Source: Nanobdellota archaeon (GTDB lineage: Archaea > EX4484-52 > LFW-46). From it: a stretch of 64,000 bases of DNA. The stretch spans positions 20,157 through 84,156 of the forward strand of contig JAHILE010000040.1 in assembly GCA_018897155.1 (NCBI GenBank), in the 5' to 3' direction. Both the position numbers and the translations under genes were made by a program. Shown here one piece after another: positions 10,239 to 19,926 of the stretch. The number at the start of each line of letters is the position of its first letter. Position 1 is the first letter of the stretch. The notes below the pieces were generated by a model. It worked only from the letters and a program-made list of their open reading frames with translations. It was not told where the DNA came from and did no database searches.

Positions 10239-11852
10239 ATGAGCTTTAAATTTCTGTTATTCATACTCATTCTTCTTTCTCCGATTACAAATGCCGAAAT
10301 AACCATAAACGAAATAATGTACGCGCCAAACAGCAACTGGGGTGGAGAAAATAATGAGTGGATAGAATTGTTTAATAACGGCATAGAAGATGCAAGCATC
10401 GCAAACTGGACAATCGATGAAAAAACAATACCTTACGCCATCGTTCCGGCGCAAGGATATTTAATCCTTGCAAAAAACACAACAAAATTCATAGAAGTAT
10501 ACGGCCGATCGTCTGTCCGCGTACCGTTTACGCTTTCAAACAGTGGAAAGGCGCTGTACTTAAAAACAGCTGGCGGCTCAACAATAGATTCCTTCGAGTA
10601 TACAGAATACGCCACTAGCGAGATGGCCAAAAACAACAACCGCACACTTGAACGAAATACAACAATCTGGCTTGAAAGCGCTGGGGTTGGTGGAACTCCG
10701 GGAGAGCAAAACAGCATATCATTCAACGCGCCTCCGGTTCAAACTCCAATGAATGAAACGAAAAACACAACAAATACAACACCATCCACAAATACTCAAG
10801 AAAATGACAGTGATATCCCGAACACGCAACAAAATCAGGAATCAGAAAATCCAATGAGCCTCGAAATACTTGTCGCGCCGGATACAATGAACTTCGGCGG
10901 ATATTCCACGATTCGTGCAAAATTCAATTCAGGAAACCGAGACTTCGAAACAGTGCGCTTTGTAGCATACATCTATAAGCCGTCGTGGATTTTGCGCGAC
11001 CTGAATGGCAACGGAACAACGCTGCGAAATTCGCCATATAATTCAAATGCTGCTGCAGAAGTTCGAGAAATTTCCGCAGACGAAACATATTATCTCGTAC
11101 TCCCGATTTTTCTAAAATGCAACACAGAAGGATATGCTGATGCCACCTATACAGCCCGGCTGCGCGCTTATACTTATGAAAACGACGAATGGAAGGCGCT
11201 AACAGAAAGCGACATAAATATTTTTGTCAGTGGAGAAAGCGAATCTTGCAAAAAAGAAATTGGAAAAGAAACCTCGTGCATAAATAAAACAATTGAAAAA
11301 AACTGCACTGAAAAAACAAAAATATTGCGCGAATATGCGCTTGAAATCAACATCACTCACCCGGAAATTATTTTTGCCGGCGAAAATTTCACTACAACGG
11401 TTTTTCTAAAAAACAATGGCGAAAAATTGCGCGACATTGAAATATACTCATACATGTACGAGCATAGCACAATAATATCAAGCGGATTTGATGGCACAAA
11501 ATGGGGCAATACAAGAACTGCGAACTCGAGAAAAGTAACGCTTTCAGCAAACGATTCCATAACAATTGAACTTTTGAATCGGGCAAAAGAAAATGCAAGC
11601 ACGGAAAAGTACACCTATAAGGTAGTTTTTGCTGATTTGGCGGACGATAAAAAATCAGAGGAACGAATATCTCTGATTGAGCTTGATGCGCGCAATGCAT
11701 CTGAAACTAACGGCTTAAAAAACGAAACGCTTTCAAACATGACCGAAATAGAAAATAAAATTACCGGGAATATGCTTGCGAAAAACGCAGTACCGAAAAA
11801 GCTTTCGCTTTTTGACAGAATAATATATAAAATAAAAAGCTGGCTAATTTAA
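10239..11852 (+). CDS. secreted lamin-tail-domain (LTD) protein with many N-glycosylation sequons
   Basis: An N-terminal signal peptide is present. The LTD signature reads 'INEIMYAPNS...NEWIELFNNG...ANWTIDEK'. There are more than 15 N-x-S/T sequons. Confidence 0.55.
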   Translation: MSFKFLLFILILLSPITNAEITINEIMYAPNSNWGGENNEWIELFNNGIEDASIANWTIDEKTIPYAIVPAQGYLILAKNTTKFIEVYGRSSVRVPFTLSNSGKALYLKTAGGSTIDSFEYTEYATSEMAKNNNRTLERNTTIWLESAGVGGTPGEQNSISFNAPPVQTPMNETKNTTNTTPSTNTQENDSDIPNTQQNQESENPMSLEILVAPDTMNFGGYSTIRAKFNSGNRDFETVRFVAYIYKPSWILRDLNGNGTTLRNSPYNSNAAAEVREISADETYYLVLPIFLKCNTEGYADATYTARLRAYTYENDEWKALTESDINIFVSGESESCKKEIGKETSCINKTIEKNCTEKTKILREYALEINITHPEIIFAGENFTTTVFLKNNGEKLRDIEIYSYMYEHSTIISSGFDGTKWGNTRTANSRKVTLSANDSITIELLNRAKENASTEKYTYKVVFADLADDKKSEERISLIELDARNASETNGLKNETLSNMTEIENKITGNMLAKNAVPKKLSLFDRIIYKIKSWLI

Positions 11853-14631: not shown

Positions 14632-15513
14632 ATGATTATGGGGATTTTAGAAAAAATCAAAGAGATCTGGAAAAATATAGGCACATCTAAAAAATCTGTA
14701 AGGATATTGGATTTGATAACAATAGTGAGTTTTATTTTGATTTTCTACGGATTTAATGAAAGCAAAAAATCAGAGGAAAACATAATCAATAATGTTAATT
14801 CATCAACATCAACAATTACTTTAGGGCAGAAAGAGATTAAAGAACTAATGCTTACCGATAAGATATCCGACTGGAATGTAAATAGTTGTCCCGACATCGT
14901 CGATAATCTTAAAACAAAATTTCCGGAATTAACTTGTTTATCTCCGATAAAGACGGAATATTGCGCATCCCAGCCCACCATTGAAAATAGTACCCTTCTT
15001 ATCGATGGTTGTGATATAGCATATAAAAAAATAGATCTTCCGGATTCGGGATATGCGATTAGGATTCGCTTCAAATCATCATGGAACGCAAATATCGACT
15101 CAATACATTATCTATTTGATAATATTGGCGGGGATAATCCTGAGAGGAACAGAATCTCACTATATGTTCAAAATGGTTATTTGAAGTATTCTATTCTTAA
15201 TGAATACGGAACTGAAGAACATATGATGAAACTGAAGTTAGAAAATAACTCTGCATGGAACGAAAAGGAGTTTAATACCATTGAAATTGGATGGGTTAAA
15301 GATCAAAACCGAATGTTTTTAGAAGTAAATGGAAATGAATACAATAAGGTAGTTGGAAATATTAGCCTAAATACATCAAATTCTATTATGTTCCTAGGTT
15401 CTGCTATTTTTGGAAACTATCAAGCAGATGGGTATTTCGATTACTGGTTTGTGAGAAAGTACATTTATCCAGAACCGACAGTTTCAATAGGTGCAGAGCA
15501 AAGAATATCGTAA
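14632..15513 (+). CDS. membrane-anchored extracellular protein, possible LamG/concanavalin-like C-terminal domain (tentative)
   Basis: An N-terminal TM is followed by a beta-rich region ending 'GYFDYWFVRKYIYPEPTVSIGAEQ'. Confidence 0.3.
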   Translation: MIMGILEKIKEIWKNIGTSKKSVRILDLITIVSFILIFYGFNESKKSEENIINNVNSSTSTITLGQKEIKELMLTDKISDWNVNSCPDIVDNLKTKFPELTCLSPIKTEYCASQPTIENSTLLIDGCDIAYKKIDLPDSGYAIRIRFKSSWNANIDSIHYLFDNIGGDNPERNRISLYVQNGYLKYSILNEYGTEEHMMKLKLENNSAWNEKEFNTIEIGWVKDQNRMFLEVNGNEYNKVVGNISLNTSNSIMFLGSAIFGNYQADGYFDYWFVRKYIYPEPTVSIGAEQRIS

Positions 15514-15660
15514 ATCTACAGAATTATTATTGCCCGCGAACATCAATGTAATAATAACGTCGTTATTGTTTTGACAGCTTGTATCTAACTGTCATACACA
15601 CACCAACTTATTTCGCCCCCCCCCCAACTTCCCATCCCCTCCTGCTTTGCGCGCCCACCT

Positions 15661-16251
15661 TCAAACCAGCCGTATGCCGTCGCGCTTTACCTGCTCCACT
15701 ACGCCGCCTGTGGTTTTTTCAAATTCAATTTCTGTGAAAAAATGCGGCTGTATCTCGCGCCCGAATCTAATCTCTGCGCGCTCGCCTATTTTTTCAAGCA
15801 GTATTCTTTCTTTTGCCGAAAGCTCCTTTTCAGTAATTATCGCCATATCCACATCAGAATCCGCCCTGTACGAGCTTTTTACAATCGAGCCGAACACATA
15901 TATTGCGGATATCTCGACGGAATCCGTTGCCTGCCGCACATACTCCCTAAGAATCATTGCGATTTTCGGGCTCATGTTGTTCAGGTCTTTTCGCTCGCTC
16001 TGGATTATTTCAGCGGCCATGCGCGCGTATTTATTTGCCATATTCATGCGGTAATATGTTTTATTTCCTGATTTTTCATAATCAACTATGCTGTTATGAA
16101 GAAGGATTTCCATCGACCGGAAAATGGCGTTTCCGCCAAGCTTTGTTATTTCTTTTATCTCTTCTTTTGTAACGCCCTGTCCCGGAGCTTGCGCAAGAAC
16201 AACTAGCGCGCGCCACACCGCCTTTGACCCGAAAACAATATCAACCAGCAT
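15661..16251 (-). CDS. minimal nucleotidyltransferase (MNT) with N-terminal wHTH; antitoxin-like
   Basis: 'IYVFGSIVKSSYRADSDVDMAII' matches the GS...DxD polymerase-beta-type NTase motif. Confidence 0.65.
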   Translation of the reverse strand: MLVDIVFGSKAVWRALVVLAQAPGQGVTKEEIKEITKLGGNAIFRSMEILLHNSIVDYEKSGNKTYYRMNMANKYARMAAEIIQSERKDLNNMSPKIAMILREYVRQATDSVEISAIYVFGSIVKSSYRADSDVDMAIITEKELSAKERILLEKIGERAEIRFGREIQPHFFTEIEFEKTTGGVVEQVKRDGIRLV

Positions 16252-16726
16252 TGAGCAGCCCCTCCATGATTTTTATGAACGGCTCTGCGATATTTGCAAT
16301 GAACCAAAGCGCTTTCTTTGAATAATCGATATTTTTAGACGATGTCTGCTCGGAATAATATTGCGCTTTCCCGCGCTCCTTTTTTCCAGTTATGAGCAGA
16401 TACGGCACCGAATCGGGTTCAACGCCGGCTATTTCATCCTCTGCTTTTTCAAGAAGTTTTATGACTTTTTCTTTCTCCTCTTTTTGCTCAAAAACATTTT
16501 TCAGTTCATCAATAGTTTGCCTGTGGGTTTCGGATCCGGAAATCTTGAGGTTATGAATATTTCCAAGATAAAGCTTTGCAATATCATGCATCGCATAGTA
16601 ACTGCAAATTATCGCCCAGCGCGGATGTTCTTTAATAATTTTTTCTGCCAGCCGAAAATCATCCTTATACGCAAATTCATGAAACTCAAGCCATATCTTT
16701 CGCTCAACTTCTGTAAGATTTGTCAT
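16241..16726 (-). CDS. HEPN-domain protein (toxin-like partner of MNT)
   Basis: An alpha-helical protein with an R-x4-6-H-like 'ETHRQT' motif. It overlaps the MNT gene by 11 nt, the classic HEPN/MNT arrangement. Confidence 0.5.
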   Translation of the reverse strand: MTNLTEVERKIWLEFHEFAYKDDFRLAEKIIKEHPRWAIICSYYAMHDIAKLYLGNIHNLKISGSETHRQTIDELKNVFEQKEEKEKVIKLLEKAEDEIAGVEPDSVPYLLITGKKERGKAQYYSEQTSSKNIDYSKKALWFIANIAEPFIKIMEGLLNAG

Positions 16727-16939
16727 TTTTAATCATTCCTCCATTACAATGGATTAAAATCATCTCGCTTTGCTCGAAGCTTTTAAACCTTCGTTCAAAA
16801 AGCTTGAAATTGGCCTTTATGCCATGCAATTTCATGAGTATATCACTTTTATGATATTATATTCGCTTATTTATATAGTTTATCACTTTTATGATGAATT
16901 TGCATCACTTTTTGTGCAGACGTGCGTTCCAATAATCGC

Positions 16940-17386
16940 TTATATTTCTTTTCGCAGTATAATAATTTCGCCGATATTTTTATCGCGCTTTTTTTCAATC
17001 TCCTTATAGCCGAGCTTTTTGTAAAACTTGTCTGCGGTTATACTTGACGGCAGCTCGACAAAGGAATATCCTCTGTTCTTAACTATTTTTTCGGCATGTG
17101 CCATCAGTCTTGTGCCGATTCCAATTCCATGAAAGGTTGGATTGACAAAAAGATTAAAGACGTGGTTATTTTCTATGCCGACAATCCCGAAAATTTTCGC
17201 GTTTTCCGCTGCTACAAAGATTGCTCTTTTTTTAGAAGCATCAATTAATCTTTTTGGAGAATACTCATCACACAGATATTGAATTGCTGATGGGGGATAA
17301 TCTTTGCTGTTGACTTCAACCAACGCTTTTCTGATAAGATTTGAAACTTTTCGCGCGTCTTCTTTTTTGAATTTCCTAATCATCAC
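16940..17386 (-). CDS. GNAT family N-acetyltransferase
   Basis: Acetyl-CoA binding motif 'VNPTFHGIGIGTRLMAHAE'. Confidence 0.7.
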   Translation of the reverse strand: MMIRKFKKEDARKVSNLIRKALVEVNSKDYPPSAIQYLCDEYSPKRLIDASKKRAIFVAAENAKIFGIVGIENNHVFNLFVNPTFHGIGIGTRLMAHAEKIVKNRGYSFVELPSSITADKFYKKLGYKEIEKKRDKNIGEIIILRKEI

Positions 17387-19926
17387 TTCTTCCCCCAGCT
17401 TCCAAGCCCCTTCTGCTTTGCGCGCCCGAGTAAATCGTCTTCTGTCACGCCGAAAATGTGCAAGACGCGCAATGCTGCAGGCACAATCTGGTTGTTGATG
17501 TAATACTCCGGGTCGTAATTCTTTGCGTATTCAGTCAATTCCGCGCGATCGCTGATAGAACCGCTTCCTTTTGTAATGACGTATTCGATTGTCTCGCCGA
17601 CCCGAATTTCTTTGCCGCGCGCGTTTGCCTTCTCAACCGCTGCAACATGCGGGCCGCGCTGGACATAATGCTTGAGTTGCCGCGTAAGCTGCGTATAGAC
17701 GCGCAACTCAGTCAAAGGCACTTTCTCAAGCTTTACTTCCTGCACGATTTTTTTAACATACTCGACAGCTTCTTTCTGCCGTTTATTCAGAACCAAGTCA
17801 AGCACTTTTTCTTGAGTATCTTTTGCAAGCCTTGACCAGTCCCTGCGCACTTTTTCAAATCCGCGAATTGTGATATTGCCGTCTTTGTCTATCAGAGCAT
17901 ATCGCTTTTTCGCCCCACCCTCGCCGGCTTTCTTTGAAACAAAAATTCCGCGCACATAAATTCCCTGCAAATCAAGCTCCATTATTCCAGGAAGTGTTGC
18001 ATTCACTTTCTGCAAAAAATTATGCGCCTCAACTTCTGTATTTTTGTCGATGCGCAAAAATAAAGAATCCGTATCGCCATATAGCGCTTCAAAACCCTGC
18101 TCCTCTGCCATTGCAATGACATTCTGTATATAGTTTCTGCCGAATGCAGTGACTGCTGACGCACATTCCCTATTATACCATCGCGAGCCGGCAAAGCCAA
18201 GATACCCGTACATTGCGTTGCTGACTGTCTTTACCGCGAACTGGCGCGCATTCAGTTCGGCATAATCGCGGCTTTTCTTATCATGGAATTTCATCTTTTC
18301 CTTTATGTGCTTTCTTTCCTGGAAAAGGTCTAAAAGAATTTCCGGAATAAACCCTTTTGTATTTGTACAAAAATGGCTTCTGCTTCCAGGAATTTTATTT
18401 TCCTGCCGGTCCTTACAGCACGAACAATTCAGCGTCTCAGGATCTATGTTGTGTGAGACAATTATGCTTGGATACAATCCCCGAAAGTCAAACACGGCAA
18501 TATTTTCATGCATCCCTGCTTTCGGCTCTTTGACAAAGCCGCCGGCAAACTGCTCCATATCCTTTCGGTCTCCGATTTCCTCTGACGATGGCCGATTCGG
18601 CACAACCACATTCATCTGCGATGCTTTTTTTATTGCATAGCTTTCAACAAGCTGGCCGTAAGTCATTCGTGACGCATCGCTTGGCAATTGAGCAGTGAGA
18701 TTTGACAGCTCAAAAATATTCGGCATTATCCGGTCTGCAAGCTTTAATGTAAGCAGTGAATCCTGCATGCAATAATCCGCAAGCTCGTGAAGCCGCGTCT
18801 TCTGTGTCCAGGCATCTTTCAGCTCATCCCAGGTGAATCCTTTTTTCCCTTCACCGACTAATTCCATTGCCACACTATCAAGGGATAGCGTTTCAGAACT
18901 CATTGCCGGGGACATCACCCGGGAGATGAAATTGAAAAGGTCTATATGCGGCATGCCTTTAAGAGTTGCGGCCTTTATTCTTCCTTTTTTCTGAAAGGAG
19001 AGTGGATTACCGTTCCTGCCGGAAATGATTTTCTCCTTAAGGTCTTTTGCTCTGGAATCAAGCACAACAAAATCAAACCCGTCGCCATTATACGTAACTA
19101 TGAAGTCGGGGTCAATAGATTTTATCTCTGAAAAAAGCGTTGACATAAGCTCTTTTTCTGATTTGACAAAAATTTCTTTTTCAAATCCGTTTTTCTCATA
19201 GCTTATGACCTTTGCGCGCCCGGCAGATGATGCAAAACTCGCCATGATTATCTTCTGTTTTTTATCCTCGTCAATTGTTTCAAGATCAAATGCAACTGTC
19301 TTTAATCCATTATGAAATGATTCTGTTTTTGATGCAGAAACGTTTTTTGCTAGAATAACAATATCTGCAGAATATCCAAAACGTTCTGCATTTTCCTTCT
19401 GCAATACCTCTGTTCCTTCTGCACAAACCCATGTAAGTGGCGCTATTTTTTTGTCAAGAAAATACCGCTTGTAAAAGGATATATCATATTCGCGCACTTC
19501 TGCTATTTTTTTTGACACTATCGGATTAGTTTTTACAATAGATTTCAGATGCGGTATGTGTGCGGGAATGTTTGCAAAAACTTTCAAGATATGGCGCTTG
19601 TCAAGACCAACAGTTTTCTCAGAAACATCAACAGATTTTACAGAAATGTCCCCGCCAGAAACAGCAGTTTCATCGCCGCCATTTGCGGTTTCATCAAACA
19701 CTCTTTCAGGAGTTCCTTTCACAATTATTTTTTCAATAGCTGATTTCAACAAAAGCAAATCCTCGGTCGTTAGCCCCGGCCTTGGCACAACATAAAAATA
19801 AGGATAGAATGAGTTGTCAAGAACTATTGCAGACTTTCCTTCATGCGTCCTTCCGTAAAGCCTGACATGCGGCTTTCCATCTAGCACAACATAATCTGCG
19901 TCGATTACGAAAATATCAAATACCAT
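17383..19926 (-). CDS. polB: DNA polymerase, family B
   Basis: An exonuclease domain plus the 'YGDTDSLFL' polymerase motif. The likely start is 'MVFDIFVID' at 19926, because the ORF track's upstream extension overlaps the neighbouring gene. Confidence 0.85.
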   Translation of the reverse strand: MVFDIFVIDADYVVLDGKPHVRLYGRTHEGKSAIVLDNSFYPYFYVVPRPGLTTEDLLLLKSAIEKIIVKGTPERVFDETANGGDETAVSGGDISVKSVDVSEKTVGLDKRHILKVFANIPAHIPHLKSIVKTNPIVSKKIAEVREYDISFYKRYFLDKKIAPLTWVCAEGTEVLQKENAERFGYSADIVILAKNVSASKTESFHNGLKTVAFDLETIDEDKKQKIIMASFASSAGRAKVISYEKNGFEKEIFVKSEKELMSTLFSEIKSIDPDFIVTYNGDGFDFVVLDSRAKDLKEKIISGRNGNPLSFQKKGRIKAATLKGMPHIDLFNFISRVMSPAMSSETLSLDSVAMELVGEGKKGFTWDELKDAWTQKTRLHELADYCMQDSLLTLKLADRIMPNIFELSNLTAQLPSDASRMTYGQLVESYAIKKASQMNVVVPNRPSSEEIGDRKDMEQFAGGFVKEPKAGMHENIAVFDFRGLYPSIIVSHNIDPETLNCSCCKDRQENKIPGSRSHFCTNTKGFIPEILLDLFQERKHIKEKMKFHDKKSRDYAELNARQFAVKTVSNAMYGYLGFAGSRWYNRECASAVTAFGRNYIQNVIAMAEEQGFEALYGDTDSLFLRIDKNTEVEAHNFLQKVNATLPGIMELDLQGIYVRGIFVSKKAGEGGAKKRYALIDKDGNITIRGFEKVRRDWSRLAKDTQEKVLDLVLNKRQKEAVEYVKKIVQEVKLEKVPLTELRVYTQLTRQLKHYVQRGPHVAAVEKANARGKEIRVGETIEYVITKGSGSISDRAELTEYAKNYDPEYYINNQIVPAALRVLHIFGVTEDDLLGRAKQKGLGSWGKK

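Follow-up and report, generated by a model that had tools for sequence, protein, structure and literature searches.

The 64,000-nucleotide stretch of DNA analysed here (the window; Nanobdellota archaeon, GenBank assembly GCA_018897155.1, contig JAHILE010000040.1, positions 20,157 to 84,156 of the forward strand) has a G+C content of 40.3% and carries a gene for a family B DNA polymerase (polB) whose 3' end is present twice. One copy is the end of polB itself and the other lies downstream as a degenerate relic. Between the two are three minus-strand open reading frames (ORFs) and a promoter region of 213 nt. The ORFs encode a GNAT acetyltransferase and the two proteins of a module of toxin-antitoxin (TA) type, a HEPN-like protein and a minimal nucleotidyltransferase (MNT) with a winged helix-turn-helix (wHTH) domain (Table 1). 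The relic, and the way in which it may have come to lie beside this module, are the subject of the present analysis, which follows up a first-pass annotation made from the nucleotide sequence alone.

Table 1. Features at the polB 3' flank, in coordinates of the window
Feature	Coordinates	Strand	Remarks
Family B DNA polymerase gene polB, 847 aa	17383..19926	-	Pfam DNA_pol_B 2.8e-70, plus exonuclease domain
Live repeat copy	17392..17427	-	last 12 full codons of polB before the terminal KK and stop; 32/36 to relic; 17383-17427 with tail and stop
GNAT acetyltransferase, 147 aa	16940..17383	-	Pfam Acetyltransf_10 4e-18; ATG shares one base with the polB stop (TGATG)
Putative module promoter/operator region	16727..16939	-	two 19-nt direct repeats (16837-16855, 16877-16895) flanking a TATA-like stretch
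HEPN-like protein, 161 aa, first module gene	16241..16726	-	predicted fold; uncharacterised family
wHTH + MNT protein, 196 aa, second module gene	15661..16251	-	overlaps HEPN-like gene by 11 nt
Relic of polB terminus	15608..15656	-	core 15621-15656; poly-G run 15616-15625; pseudo-stop TAA (9-G allele) 15608-15610
Block shared with contig L108	15620..16909	-	promoter, HEPN-like, MNT and relic up to the G-run; blastn 94.0% over 1291 nt
orf293/291	14638..15513	+	convergent with module; bounds the variable interval on the far side; tblastn matches in same-species assemblies only

A repeat search of the window identified the duplication as two copies of 36 nt (15621-15656 and 17392-17427), identical at 32 of 36 positions (89%) and separated by ~1.73 kb. 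The copies stand in the same orientation, one at each end of the inserted DNA, as attL and attR sites would. The first-pass annotation had reported 35-nt strings with 31 identical positions; the strings were correct and the match was confirmed, but they lie at 15622-15656 and 17393-17427, that is, 2-3 nt lower than the positions it had given (15624-15658 and 17396-17430). In gene orientation the first 15 nt of the repeat (GGGCGCGCAAAGCAG) are identical in both copies, and the four mismatches change, from the live copy to the relic, AAG to GAG, CTT to ATG (two changes) and AGC to AGT. Homology ends sharply on the upstream side, towards the body of polB. On the 3' side it may reach the stop codon with an indel in a run of G (AAG AAG TGA against GCG AAA TAA in a 9-G allele), giving a repeat of ~45-49 nt when tail and stop codon are counted; at either length it falls in the >30 bp range of Furuta et al. 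(2010).

A repeat this short (36 nt), and G+C-rich in a genome of 40% G+C, might have arisen by chance, from composition or in assembly. The best other match to the 36-mer within the 64-kb window, on both strands, was 22/36, and 300 shuffles that preserved dinucleotide composition gave a best match of 21.1 on average (sd 0.93) and of 24/36 at most. The similarity is therefore far beyond chance, and the lack of significance that the first-pass annotation named as a refuting outcome was not observed. An artefact of assembly is unlikely because at least four independent assemblies or runs, including a Logan contig from a separate run, carry the duplication, and an orthologous relic is found at the same junction in L108, a 2,070-nt contig of a second genome. 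Chance or artefact can thus be set aside for practical purposes.

The two copies differ clearly in status. The polB product, with its start set from the gene call in L013 and the translation, ends in GRAKQKGLGSWGKK (EDDLLGRAKQKGLGSWGKK), a tail resembling the PCNA-interacting peptide (PIP) box, and this polB-proximal copy has the clade-typical terminus QKGLGSWGKK. The C-terminal PIP box of archaeal PolB has the form Qxx[LIM]xx[FYW][FYWL] and lies near the C-terminus. The live tail KQKGLGSWGKK is a partial match to it, with G at the eighth position, and most of 60 PolB homologs inspected contain Q-x-x-L-x-x-(W/F). Among relatives, PolB proteins end in Q(K/R)GLxxWG(K/R)K or in the variants WGKSK and WGK, with a clade consensus of QKGLxxWGKK. 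Because all of them match this pattern or close variants of it, the live copy of the window represents the clade-typical terminus and the relic (QEGMGSWGG..) the deviant one. The relic differs from the live copy of the window at 4/36 positions and from the live copies of L018 and L108 at 5-6/36, an ordinary distance between lineages.

As the first-pass annotation had stated, the relic begins just beyond the MNT stop codon (15661-15663, TGA), with a gap of 4 nt, and is out of frame with MNT. Its own frame has no start codon and contains stop codons upstream. The C-run at 15616-15625 (a G-run in gene orientation) comprises 10 bases in the window, so the relic frame reads GRAKQEGMGSWGGGEISWCVYDS (..GSWGGGEISWCVYDS) before its stop; the ending GGAK given in the first-pass annotation requires 9 G, as found in L014. 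Four assemblies of the same organism (L013, L014, L015 and L021; 99.97-100% identical) each contain the whole arrangement, and their G-runs are of 10 (L013 and L015, like the window), 9 (L014) or 8 bases (L021), so that beyond the Trp codon each of the three frames is represented in assemblies that are otherwise nearly identical. This variation of the homopolymer between 8 and 10 may be a genuine polymorphism caused by slippage, or an error of sequencing through the run. With 9 G the relic reads GSWGGAK-TAA, which could plausibly have been a terminus once. In all four relatives without a coupled downstream gene polB ends in TAA, and the live copy in the window ends in TGA; the TAA end of the relic and the TGA of the live copy, which overlaps the GNAT start, would fit the relic being a displaced earlier terminus.

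Since there is no start codon and the G-run has 8, 9 or 10 bases across near-identical assemblies, the relic is a non-coding, dead copy, and its description as a relic in the first-pass annotation has been borne out. The distal copy might instead have retained a function, as a PIP-box peptide reached by frameshift from MNT, as a small RNA or terminator, or as a G-quadruplex element under selection. The sequence is indeed G-rich, and Q-x-x-(L/M)-x-x-W is kept in the relic (QEGMGSW) with a conservative change from L to M. Besides the missing start, the in-frame stops upstream and the three frames, such a function is contradicted by the low conservation of the L108 relic, which is ~74-85% identical with extra indels against 94-96% for the adjacent module, and by a homologous module in contig L024 that has no relic sequence. 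No RNA structure signal (z = -0.62), Rfam match or terminator-like site was found in the relic region. We consider a functional distal copy very improbable.

The first gene of the module had no family match in Pfam, NCBIfam or PDB sequences and a marginal one in PADLOC (E 0.038); none of its 46 homologs had a Pfam domain. An AlphaFold2 model built from 35 homologs (predicted local distance difference test score, pLDDT, 88.5) consists of six helices, and its top Foldseek matches in the PDB were HEPN proteins (2hsb, 4nqf and 3o10, the sacsin HEPN domain), with probabilities up to 1.0 and weak E-values from 7e-3 (for 2hsb, template-modelling score 0.58/0.72, probability 1.0, E 7e-3). With HEPN-domain structures as the best matches of the model, the designation HEPN-like is supported at the level of the predicted fold. 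The catalytic Rx4-6H motif is absent from the family, there being no His at a distance of 4-6 residues past R118 in the alignment of 35 sequences. The residues R36 W37, Y43 A45 M46 H47 D48, H68 and E117 R118 ... Q122 Y123 Y124 are invariant, the last group within the stretch ERGKAQYY. The second protein matched Pfam Polbeta (2.4e-10) and NTP_transf_2 (3.5e-9), both above cut-offs, as well as NCBIfam MntA_antitoxin (4.7e-9, 36 bits, below the cut-off of 60) and PADLOC PDC-M05A (1.1e-17), and its N-terminus has a weak ArsR-type helix-turn-helix.

The 19-nt repeats upstream of the HEPN-like gene share the minus-strand core ATCATAAAAGTGATA, and the same pair is found upstream of the HEPN-like gene in L024, L025 and L108. 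As this arrangement precedes homologous modules, the pair has a putative promoter and operator of its own. The module, comprising operator repeats and promoter, HEPN-like gene and wHTH-MNT gene, is ~1.25 kb in size, with a presumed TA function. An ORF of 43 aa (16704-16835, minus strand) starts just past the second of the operator repeats and runs into the start of the HEPN-like gene. The ~110 nt containing it are found in L108 but not in the L024 module, whose operator lies directly against the ATG. The module resembles the HepT/MntA type VII TA system in its MNT paired with a small all-helical protein of HEPN fold, its overlapping two-gene operon and its operator-like repeats. Unlike HepT/MntA, the order of the genes is reversed (HEPN-like first), the MNT carries an N-terminal wHTH, and the HEPN-like protein has no Pfam or NCBIfam model and lacks Rx4-6H.

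Comparison with relatives indicated that the segment is an insertion. PolB of the six relatives found is 94% (L018), 88% (L016), 82% (L017), 75% (L001), 70% (L019) and 67% (L020) identical to that of the window, and each has one polB terminus, with GNAT, HEPN-like, MNT and orf293 all absent. For this reason the reading of the window segment as an insertion relative to every cassette-free relative found is supported by sequence comparison. The check on relatives proposed in the first-pass annotation, as to whether the three genes are missing, therefore gave the expected result, and its core claim of an insertion at the polB end with displacement of the old terminus is supported. A second copy of the polB end was not found in L016, L017 or L001 (all three tested), indicating that the duplication is tied to the module and is not a general feature of a polB hot spot.

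Contig L108 helped to separate the module from its neighbours. It encodes the closest homolog of the GNAT protein (81% amino acid identity), and its order is polB 3' end, module promoter, HEPN-like gene, MNT, relic and GNAT, compared with polB, GNAT, module and relic in the window. The polB 3' end of L108 encodes a terminus in GRAKQKGLGGWGKK and continues with TGATGAATTAG; the relic directly follows the MNT stop (GGGCGCGAGAGGGAAGCAGAAGGGATGGGGAGTTGGGGGG) and is succeeded by ATATGATACTGATTCGG, running into GNAT. The repeat in L108 spans the polB end and ~9 nt of the GNAT start, and this contig has the appearance of a simple insertion of the module at a polB-GNAT junction, with the target duplicated. 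The joint between the MNT stop and GGGCGCG is at essentially the same position in both genomes (the window has 4 nt more, AGGT), and the two relics share the derived letters ATG-GGR-AGT-TGGGGGG, from which it follows that the junction arose once.

Nucleotide identity between window and L108 was 82.1% for the polB 3' end and 82.4% for GNAT, against 95.1% for the module promoter, 95.9% for the HEPN-like gene and 93.7% for MNT; the relic was about 74-85% identical, with indels. Homology in the promoter region begins at ~16909. Because GNAT is as diverged as polB (82%) and the module is 94-96% identical, GNAT is probably a resident neighbour of polB and not cargo. The first-pass annotation had named a HEPN-MNT pair and a GNAT acetyltransferase as the contents of the interval; the HEPN-like (at fold level), MNT and GNAT genes are all there, and the part that did not stand is the inclusion of GNAT in the inserted cassette, since in L108 it lies outside the module and has diverged like polB. 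These identities also mean that lineages have exchanged the module since the divergence of their hosts, and that the relic drifts fast.

Homologous modules were also found far from polB. L024, a second contig of the metagenome-assembled genome that also gave L019, carries one at an unrelated locus (HEPN-like 87% identical, 77% at the nucleotide level). Homology there covers the module from the start of the HEPN-like gene precisely up to the stop of MNT, and the DNA beyond does not resemble polB. When metagenome contigs were scanned with the alignment of HEPN-like proteins, 80 loci were obtained, in essentially all of which an MNT homolog directly follows the HEPN-like gene where the contig allows. 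None of the 80 had PolB or GNAT within 6 kb, and none contained a polB-like 36-mer (>=27/36). No HEPN-like homologs were found in viral, phage or plasmid collections. A search limited to the insert (GNAT, HEPN-like and MNT only) and its syntenic housekeeping flanks found no recombinase. The locus thus resembles the cases screened by Furuta et al. (2010), inserts of <20 kb with a complete addiction-type module and no mobility genes, by analogy only, as it holds a TA-type pair and not a restriction-modification (RM) system.

These data bear on classical site-specific integration, the type of origin put forward in the first-pass annotation. Spelled out, it would have an attP that mimics the polB 3' end recombine at a 15-nt core, regenerating polB and leaving attR behind, with the integrase since lost or acting in trans. 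Such an origin shares with the locus its attL/attR-like anatomy (same-orientation repeats flanking the insert, a restored 3' end of the target gene and a 15-nt identical stretch at one end of the repeat), and the L108 order HEPN-MNT-(polB-like spacer)-GNAT is circularly permuted as expected of an excised circle. Integration of this kind is nevertheless improbable in our view. There is no recombinase in the insert or syntenic flanks, and genes lie within 0-4 nt of both junctions, so that no space is left for element DNA since lost. The L024 module without polB-like sequence indicates that no core travels with the element; the 80 loci without PolB or GNAT argue the same way. The repeats that flank other members (28-178 nt) are unrelated to this one, and no core is conserved across the family. 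The L108 repeat, consisting of the polB end and the first ~9 nt of GNAT, is a duplication of the host target and not an element-borne site; GNAT diverges like host DNA; and the HEPN-like protein has no viral, phage or plasmid homologs. A casposon or transposon-type target-site duplication was rejected, since terminal inverted repeats, Cas1 and a transposase are all missing and the repeats are far too long and variable.

The family as a whole was then informative about the repeats. For each locus the DNA after the MNT stop was aligned to the DNA upstream of the HEPN-like gene (blastn, E <= 1e-4), which could be done for 58 loci. Direct repeats of 28-178 nt, 78-96% identical, bracket the module in 12 of these. 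The downstream copy starts 1-44 nt past the MNT stop in 10 of the 12, and 121 and 177 nt past it in L049 and L074. In a stricter test 8/29 loci were positive compared with 3/102 shifted control positions (Fisher p = 2.5e-4), and two of the three control matches themselves bracket other TA-type cassettes, in L059 (4213-5663, a DUF4258 plus MazE/MqsA-like pair) and L094 (2173-3674, a second nucleotidyltransferase pair), with repeats of 118-167 nt that are 89-90% identical. As these two cassettes arose as control matches, bracketing by repeats may be a general trait of the TA cassettes of these genomes.

The repeated segments that could be assigned come from the ends of ordinary host genes, a different one at each locus: the 3' end of an asparaginase-family gene (L073) and of a HAD hydrolase gene (L094), the 3' region of FttA/aCPSF1 (L062), the 5' end of genes for UDP-GlcNAc 2-epimerase (L027) and a metallophosphoesterase (L099), and the junction before an AAA ATPase gene (L049). 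The polB relic is one case of a property general to this module family. When live and relic copies were compared codon by codon, the pooled differences numbered 13, 5 and 30 at first, second and third codon positions; 26 of the codons affected were synonymous and 13 nonsynonymous (synonymous/nonsynonymous 5/0 in L073, 3/0 in L099, 3/1 in L062, 12/5 in L027 and 2/5 in L094). The relics of L073 and L099 still encode the identical peptide, and no repeat pair among the 12 is 100% identical. Decay of a dead copy in place would be expected to affect the three codon positions alike; as the bias is synonymous, one of the copies probably came from a diverged ortholog in a donor genome.

This bears directly on a true target-site duplication, in which a long staggered break or replication template switching would have produced copies identical at birth, the distal one decaying neutrally thereafter. 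Differences in the window are not biased to synonymous changes (1 against 2) and its tail has indels, L094 is similar (2/5), the 28-178-nt repeats overlap the lengths described for RM systems (PMC2853133), and tight module boundaries suggest a defined unit, all of which would be expected of such a duplication. It is contradicted by the strong third-position and synonymous bias of the pooled differences, by the relics that encode the same peptide, by the lack of any fully identical pair among the 12, and by the window relic being as far from its own live copy (4/36) as from those of other lineages (5-6/36). On balance it seems unlikely.

The explanation that we prefer, with a probability of about 0.6, is that the relic is a decaying, non-functional polB end left behind when a mobile two-gene module landed at the polB/GNAT junction by target-duplicating recombination, with no site-specific integrase involved. 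The module would enter on DNA of a related genome together with a piece of a neighbouring gene. One side would recombine by homology within that neighbour, here polB, and the other end, a few nt from the MNT stop, would be joined illegitimately within the corresponding gene end of the recipient. The essential gene would thereby stay intact on one side, and a redundant end of tens to hundreds of nt would remain on the other. The presumed addiction or defence function of the module would stabilise the insert while the redundant end drifts (here K to E, L to M, loss of the terminal KK and stop, and slippage of the G-run), and the repeats and flanks could later permit allelic exchange of the module between lineages. 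Because of the synonymous bias between repeat copies, import with a donor flank is favoured over a staggered-cut duplication of the target; the sequence data favour homologous pairing on one side with an illegitimate joint on the other, as in homology-facilitated illegitimate recombination (HFIR), or equivalently a single crossover of a circularised fragment. From these comparisons we infer the recombination pathway, which copy in the window would be that of the donor and which that of the recipient, and the order of rearrangements that placed GNAT inside the repeats in the window and outside them in L108.

Several observations weigh against this account. A clean empty site was not found: the right flank (orf293) is absent from all six relatives, so the pre-insertion state, in which the polB terminus would be joined directly to GTTGGTGTGTGTATGAC, is deduced. 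Exact-protein lookups for MNT, PspC and orf293 returned the same arrangement only and no empty-site variant. No flanking repeat was detected at 46 of the 58 loci, and the repeat-positive L064 and L055 have multi-copy repeats or tandem modules in place of simple two-copy scars. The four differences in the window (1 synonymous and 2 nonsynonymous codons) are too few to separate an origin in donor and recipient from decay. A mosaic polB 3' end, with the last 30 nt L016-like, the preceding part L018-like and a switch at AAAGCAG, proved to be within noise, the mismatches per 30-nt bin (5 vs L018, 2 vs L016) being normal scatter. Module boundaries are tight (0-45 nt past the MNT stop in 10/12 repeat-positive loci, usually 120-450 nt before the HEPN-like start); as randomly broken donor fragments would not obviously give such boundaries, a defined mobile unit or circular intermediate is possible.

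The gene orders of the window and L108, finally, need at least one further rearrangement. One possibility is that a duplication spanning GNAT was resolved differently in each lineage, another local excision and reinsertion. Single paths from the L108 order to that of the window were tried (circle excision and reinsertion, a tandem dimer with differential loss of GNAT, and right-anchored HFIR) and none was uniquely supported. A match of 8 nt (GGCGAAAT) between the tail of the relic and the 3' end of GNAT was disregarded as a post hoc finding.

The exact-PolB lookup with the corrected start (17383-19926) returned no record, and orf293/291 had no match in Pfam, NCBIfam or PADLOC. Between orf293 and the relic, contigs of GCA_043814905.1 break at window positions 15522-15524 (L013 6731-6868; L022 1-138), and both ends run into foreign DNA. 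The foreign ends carry imperfect terminal inverted repeats of ~18 nt (AGACCTCTTGCATAATTA and AATAAACCTCTTGCGCAATTA), and the window overlaps 3 nt across the break, which looks like an insertion sequence (IS)-like insertion in that strain.

Synteny is kept on both sides of the locus in the relatives, in the order geranylgeranylglyceryl phosphate (GGGP) synthase, polB, a variable interval, a PspC-domain membrane protein and a DEAD-box helicase. Nothing follows polB in L001 and L019, an isochorismatase gene and an unrelated HepT/MNT pair in L016, a decayed isochorismatase gene in L017, and other genes in L018 and L020. As the interval from polB to the PspC and DEAD-helicase genes holds different genes in each lineage, the DNA directly downstream of the replicative polymerase gene forms a gene-flux hot spot in this reduced DPANN genome. 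The window, L016, L017 and L108 have in common the junction AAGAA(G/A)TGATGA (window 17380-17391; L016 and L017 ~10533-10550), and two unrelated genes start at the same ATG within TGATGA, one encoding GNAT (window) and the other an isochorismatase (L016 and L017). Since unrelated genes share one ATG and uncoupled relatives end polB with TAA, this suggests that the gene coupled to polB was replaced in place.

The HepT/MNT pair of L016 (11062-11883) is a canonical one (Pfam HepT-like and NTP_transf_2) on the opposite strand within the polB-PspC interval, and no flanking repeats were found around it. In L017 (11060-11146) only a remnant of the 5' end of an L016-type MNT remains beside the decayed isochorismatase gene. 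As L017 retains this remnant, the difference is due to a deletion in L017, and TA pairs of different families have thus come and gone in the interval. PolB of L019 (8001-11807, P0004; 1268 aa) carries an intein (Pfam Intein_splicing), which PolB of the window lacks. In L018 (1-3002) the polB gene call is of 621 aa only; upstream of it are a 177-aa ORF and the GGGP synthase 3' end, so this polB may be split, frameshifted or miscalled.

Insertion with long target duplication has been proposed for RM modules in Helicobacter and other bacteria (Nobusato et al., 2000, Gene 259:99; Furuta, Abe and Kobayashi, 2010, PMC2853133). The repeats are >30 bp, variable and often overlap the 3' end of a gene, and mobility genes are lacking (PMC2853133). 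They are usually not 100% identical, for instance 44/46 or 384/412, and a related genome has the target once; no archaeal case passed the screen (PMC2853133). The present locus is like these in its small addiction-type module without transposase or integrase, its locus-variable repeats of >30 bp and its involvement of gene 3' ends. It departs from them in its cargo (a HEPN-like/MNT pair in place of an RM system), in its host (a DPANN archaeon) and in having no clean empty site, and the codon-position test suggests that one copy came from a diverged donor and not from the recipient's own target. Our literature searches found no report of long target duplications for TA modules or in archaea.

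In the type VI secretion system (T6SS) effector-immunity arrays of V. cholerae and in Rhs C-terminal displacement, homology-anchored displacement leaves orphan 3' relics (PMC5361080). The polB locus has in common with HFIR displacement at T6SS and Rhs loci a conserved upstream gene as anchor and an old 3' end pushed downstream as a relic, and repeated events would lead to arrays. An array of this kind may be seen in L064 (1-5254), where five copies of a 107-169-nt repeat, spaced at 1.4-1.5 kb (the last at 0.8 kb), lie between small cassettes (an MNT-like pair, a HEPN-like/MNT pair and a pair of 88 aa and 115 aa) and begin inside the 3' end of the preceding gene. The T6SS and Rhs events, unlike the one proposed here, displace toxin domains and keep useful immunity genes, and our relic is 36-49 nt of an essential polymerase gene and functionless. 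Experimental demonstration of HFIR is reported only from bacteria (PMC3240628).

More broadly, and more tentatively, the HEPN-like/wHTH-MNT pair, and probably other small TA cassettes of DPANN archaea, may be a widespread mobile unit that spreads without transposase or integrase, by recombination in which tens to hundreds of bases of a neighbouring host gene are captured or duplicated and dead gene ends are left behind, iteration building arrays such as that of L064. We hold this generalisation to be a reasonable candidate, short of probable. Nothing here supports the extreme version, in which the module's own proteins promote insertion. How TA and other addiction modules move without mobility genes is poorly understood, and the dead polB end would mark such an event, and would carry over to archaea and TA-type modules what has until now been described for RM systems of bacteria. 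The signature, a duplicated gene end beside a two-gene cassette, can be surveyed in other genomes. It also carries a warning for annotation: such relics would not be att sites, and a missing integrase would be expected and not a sign of decay. Scars whose differences are biased to synonymous changes point to import with donor flanks (one-sided homologous recombination) and not to a transposase-like cut. If TA cassettes do spread without integrases in this way, the flanking repeats would record donor and recipient alleles and so give a direct handle on module movement.

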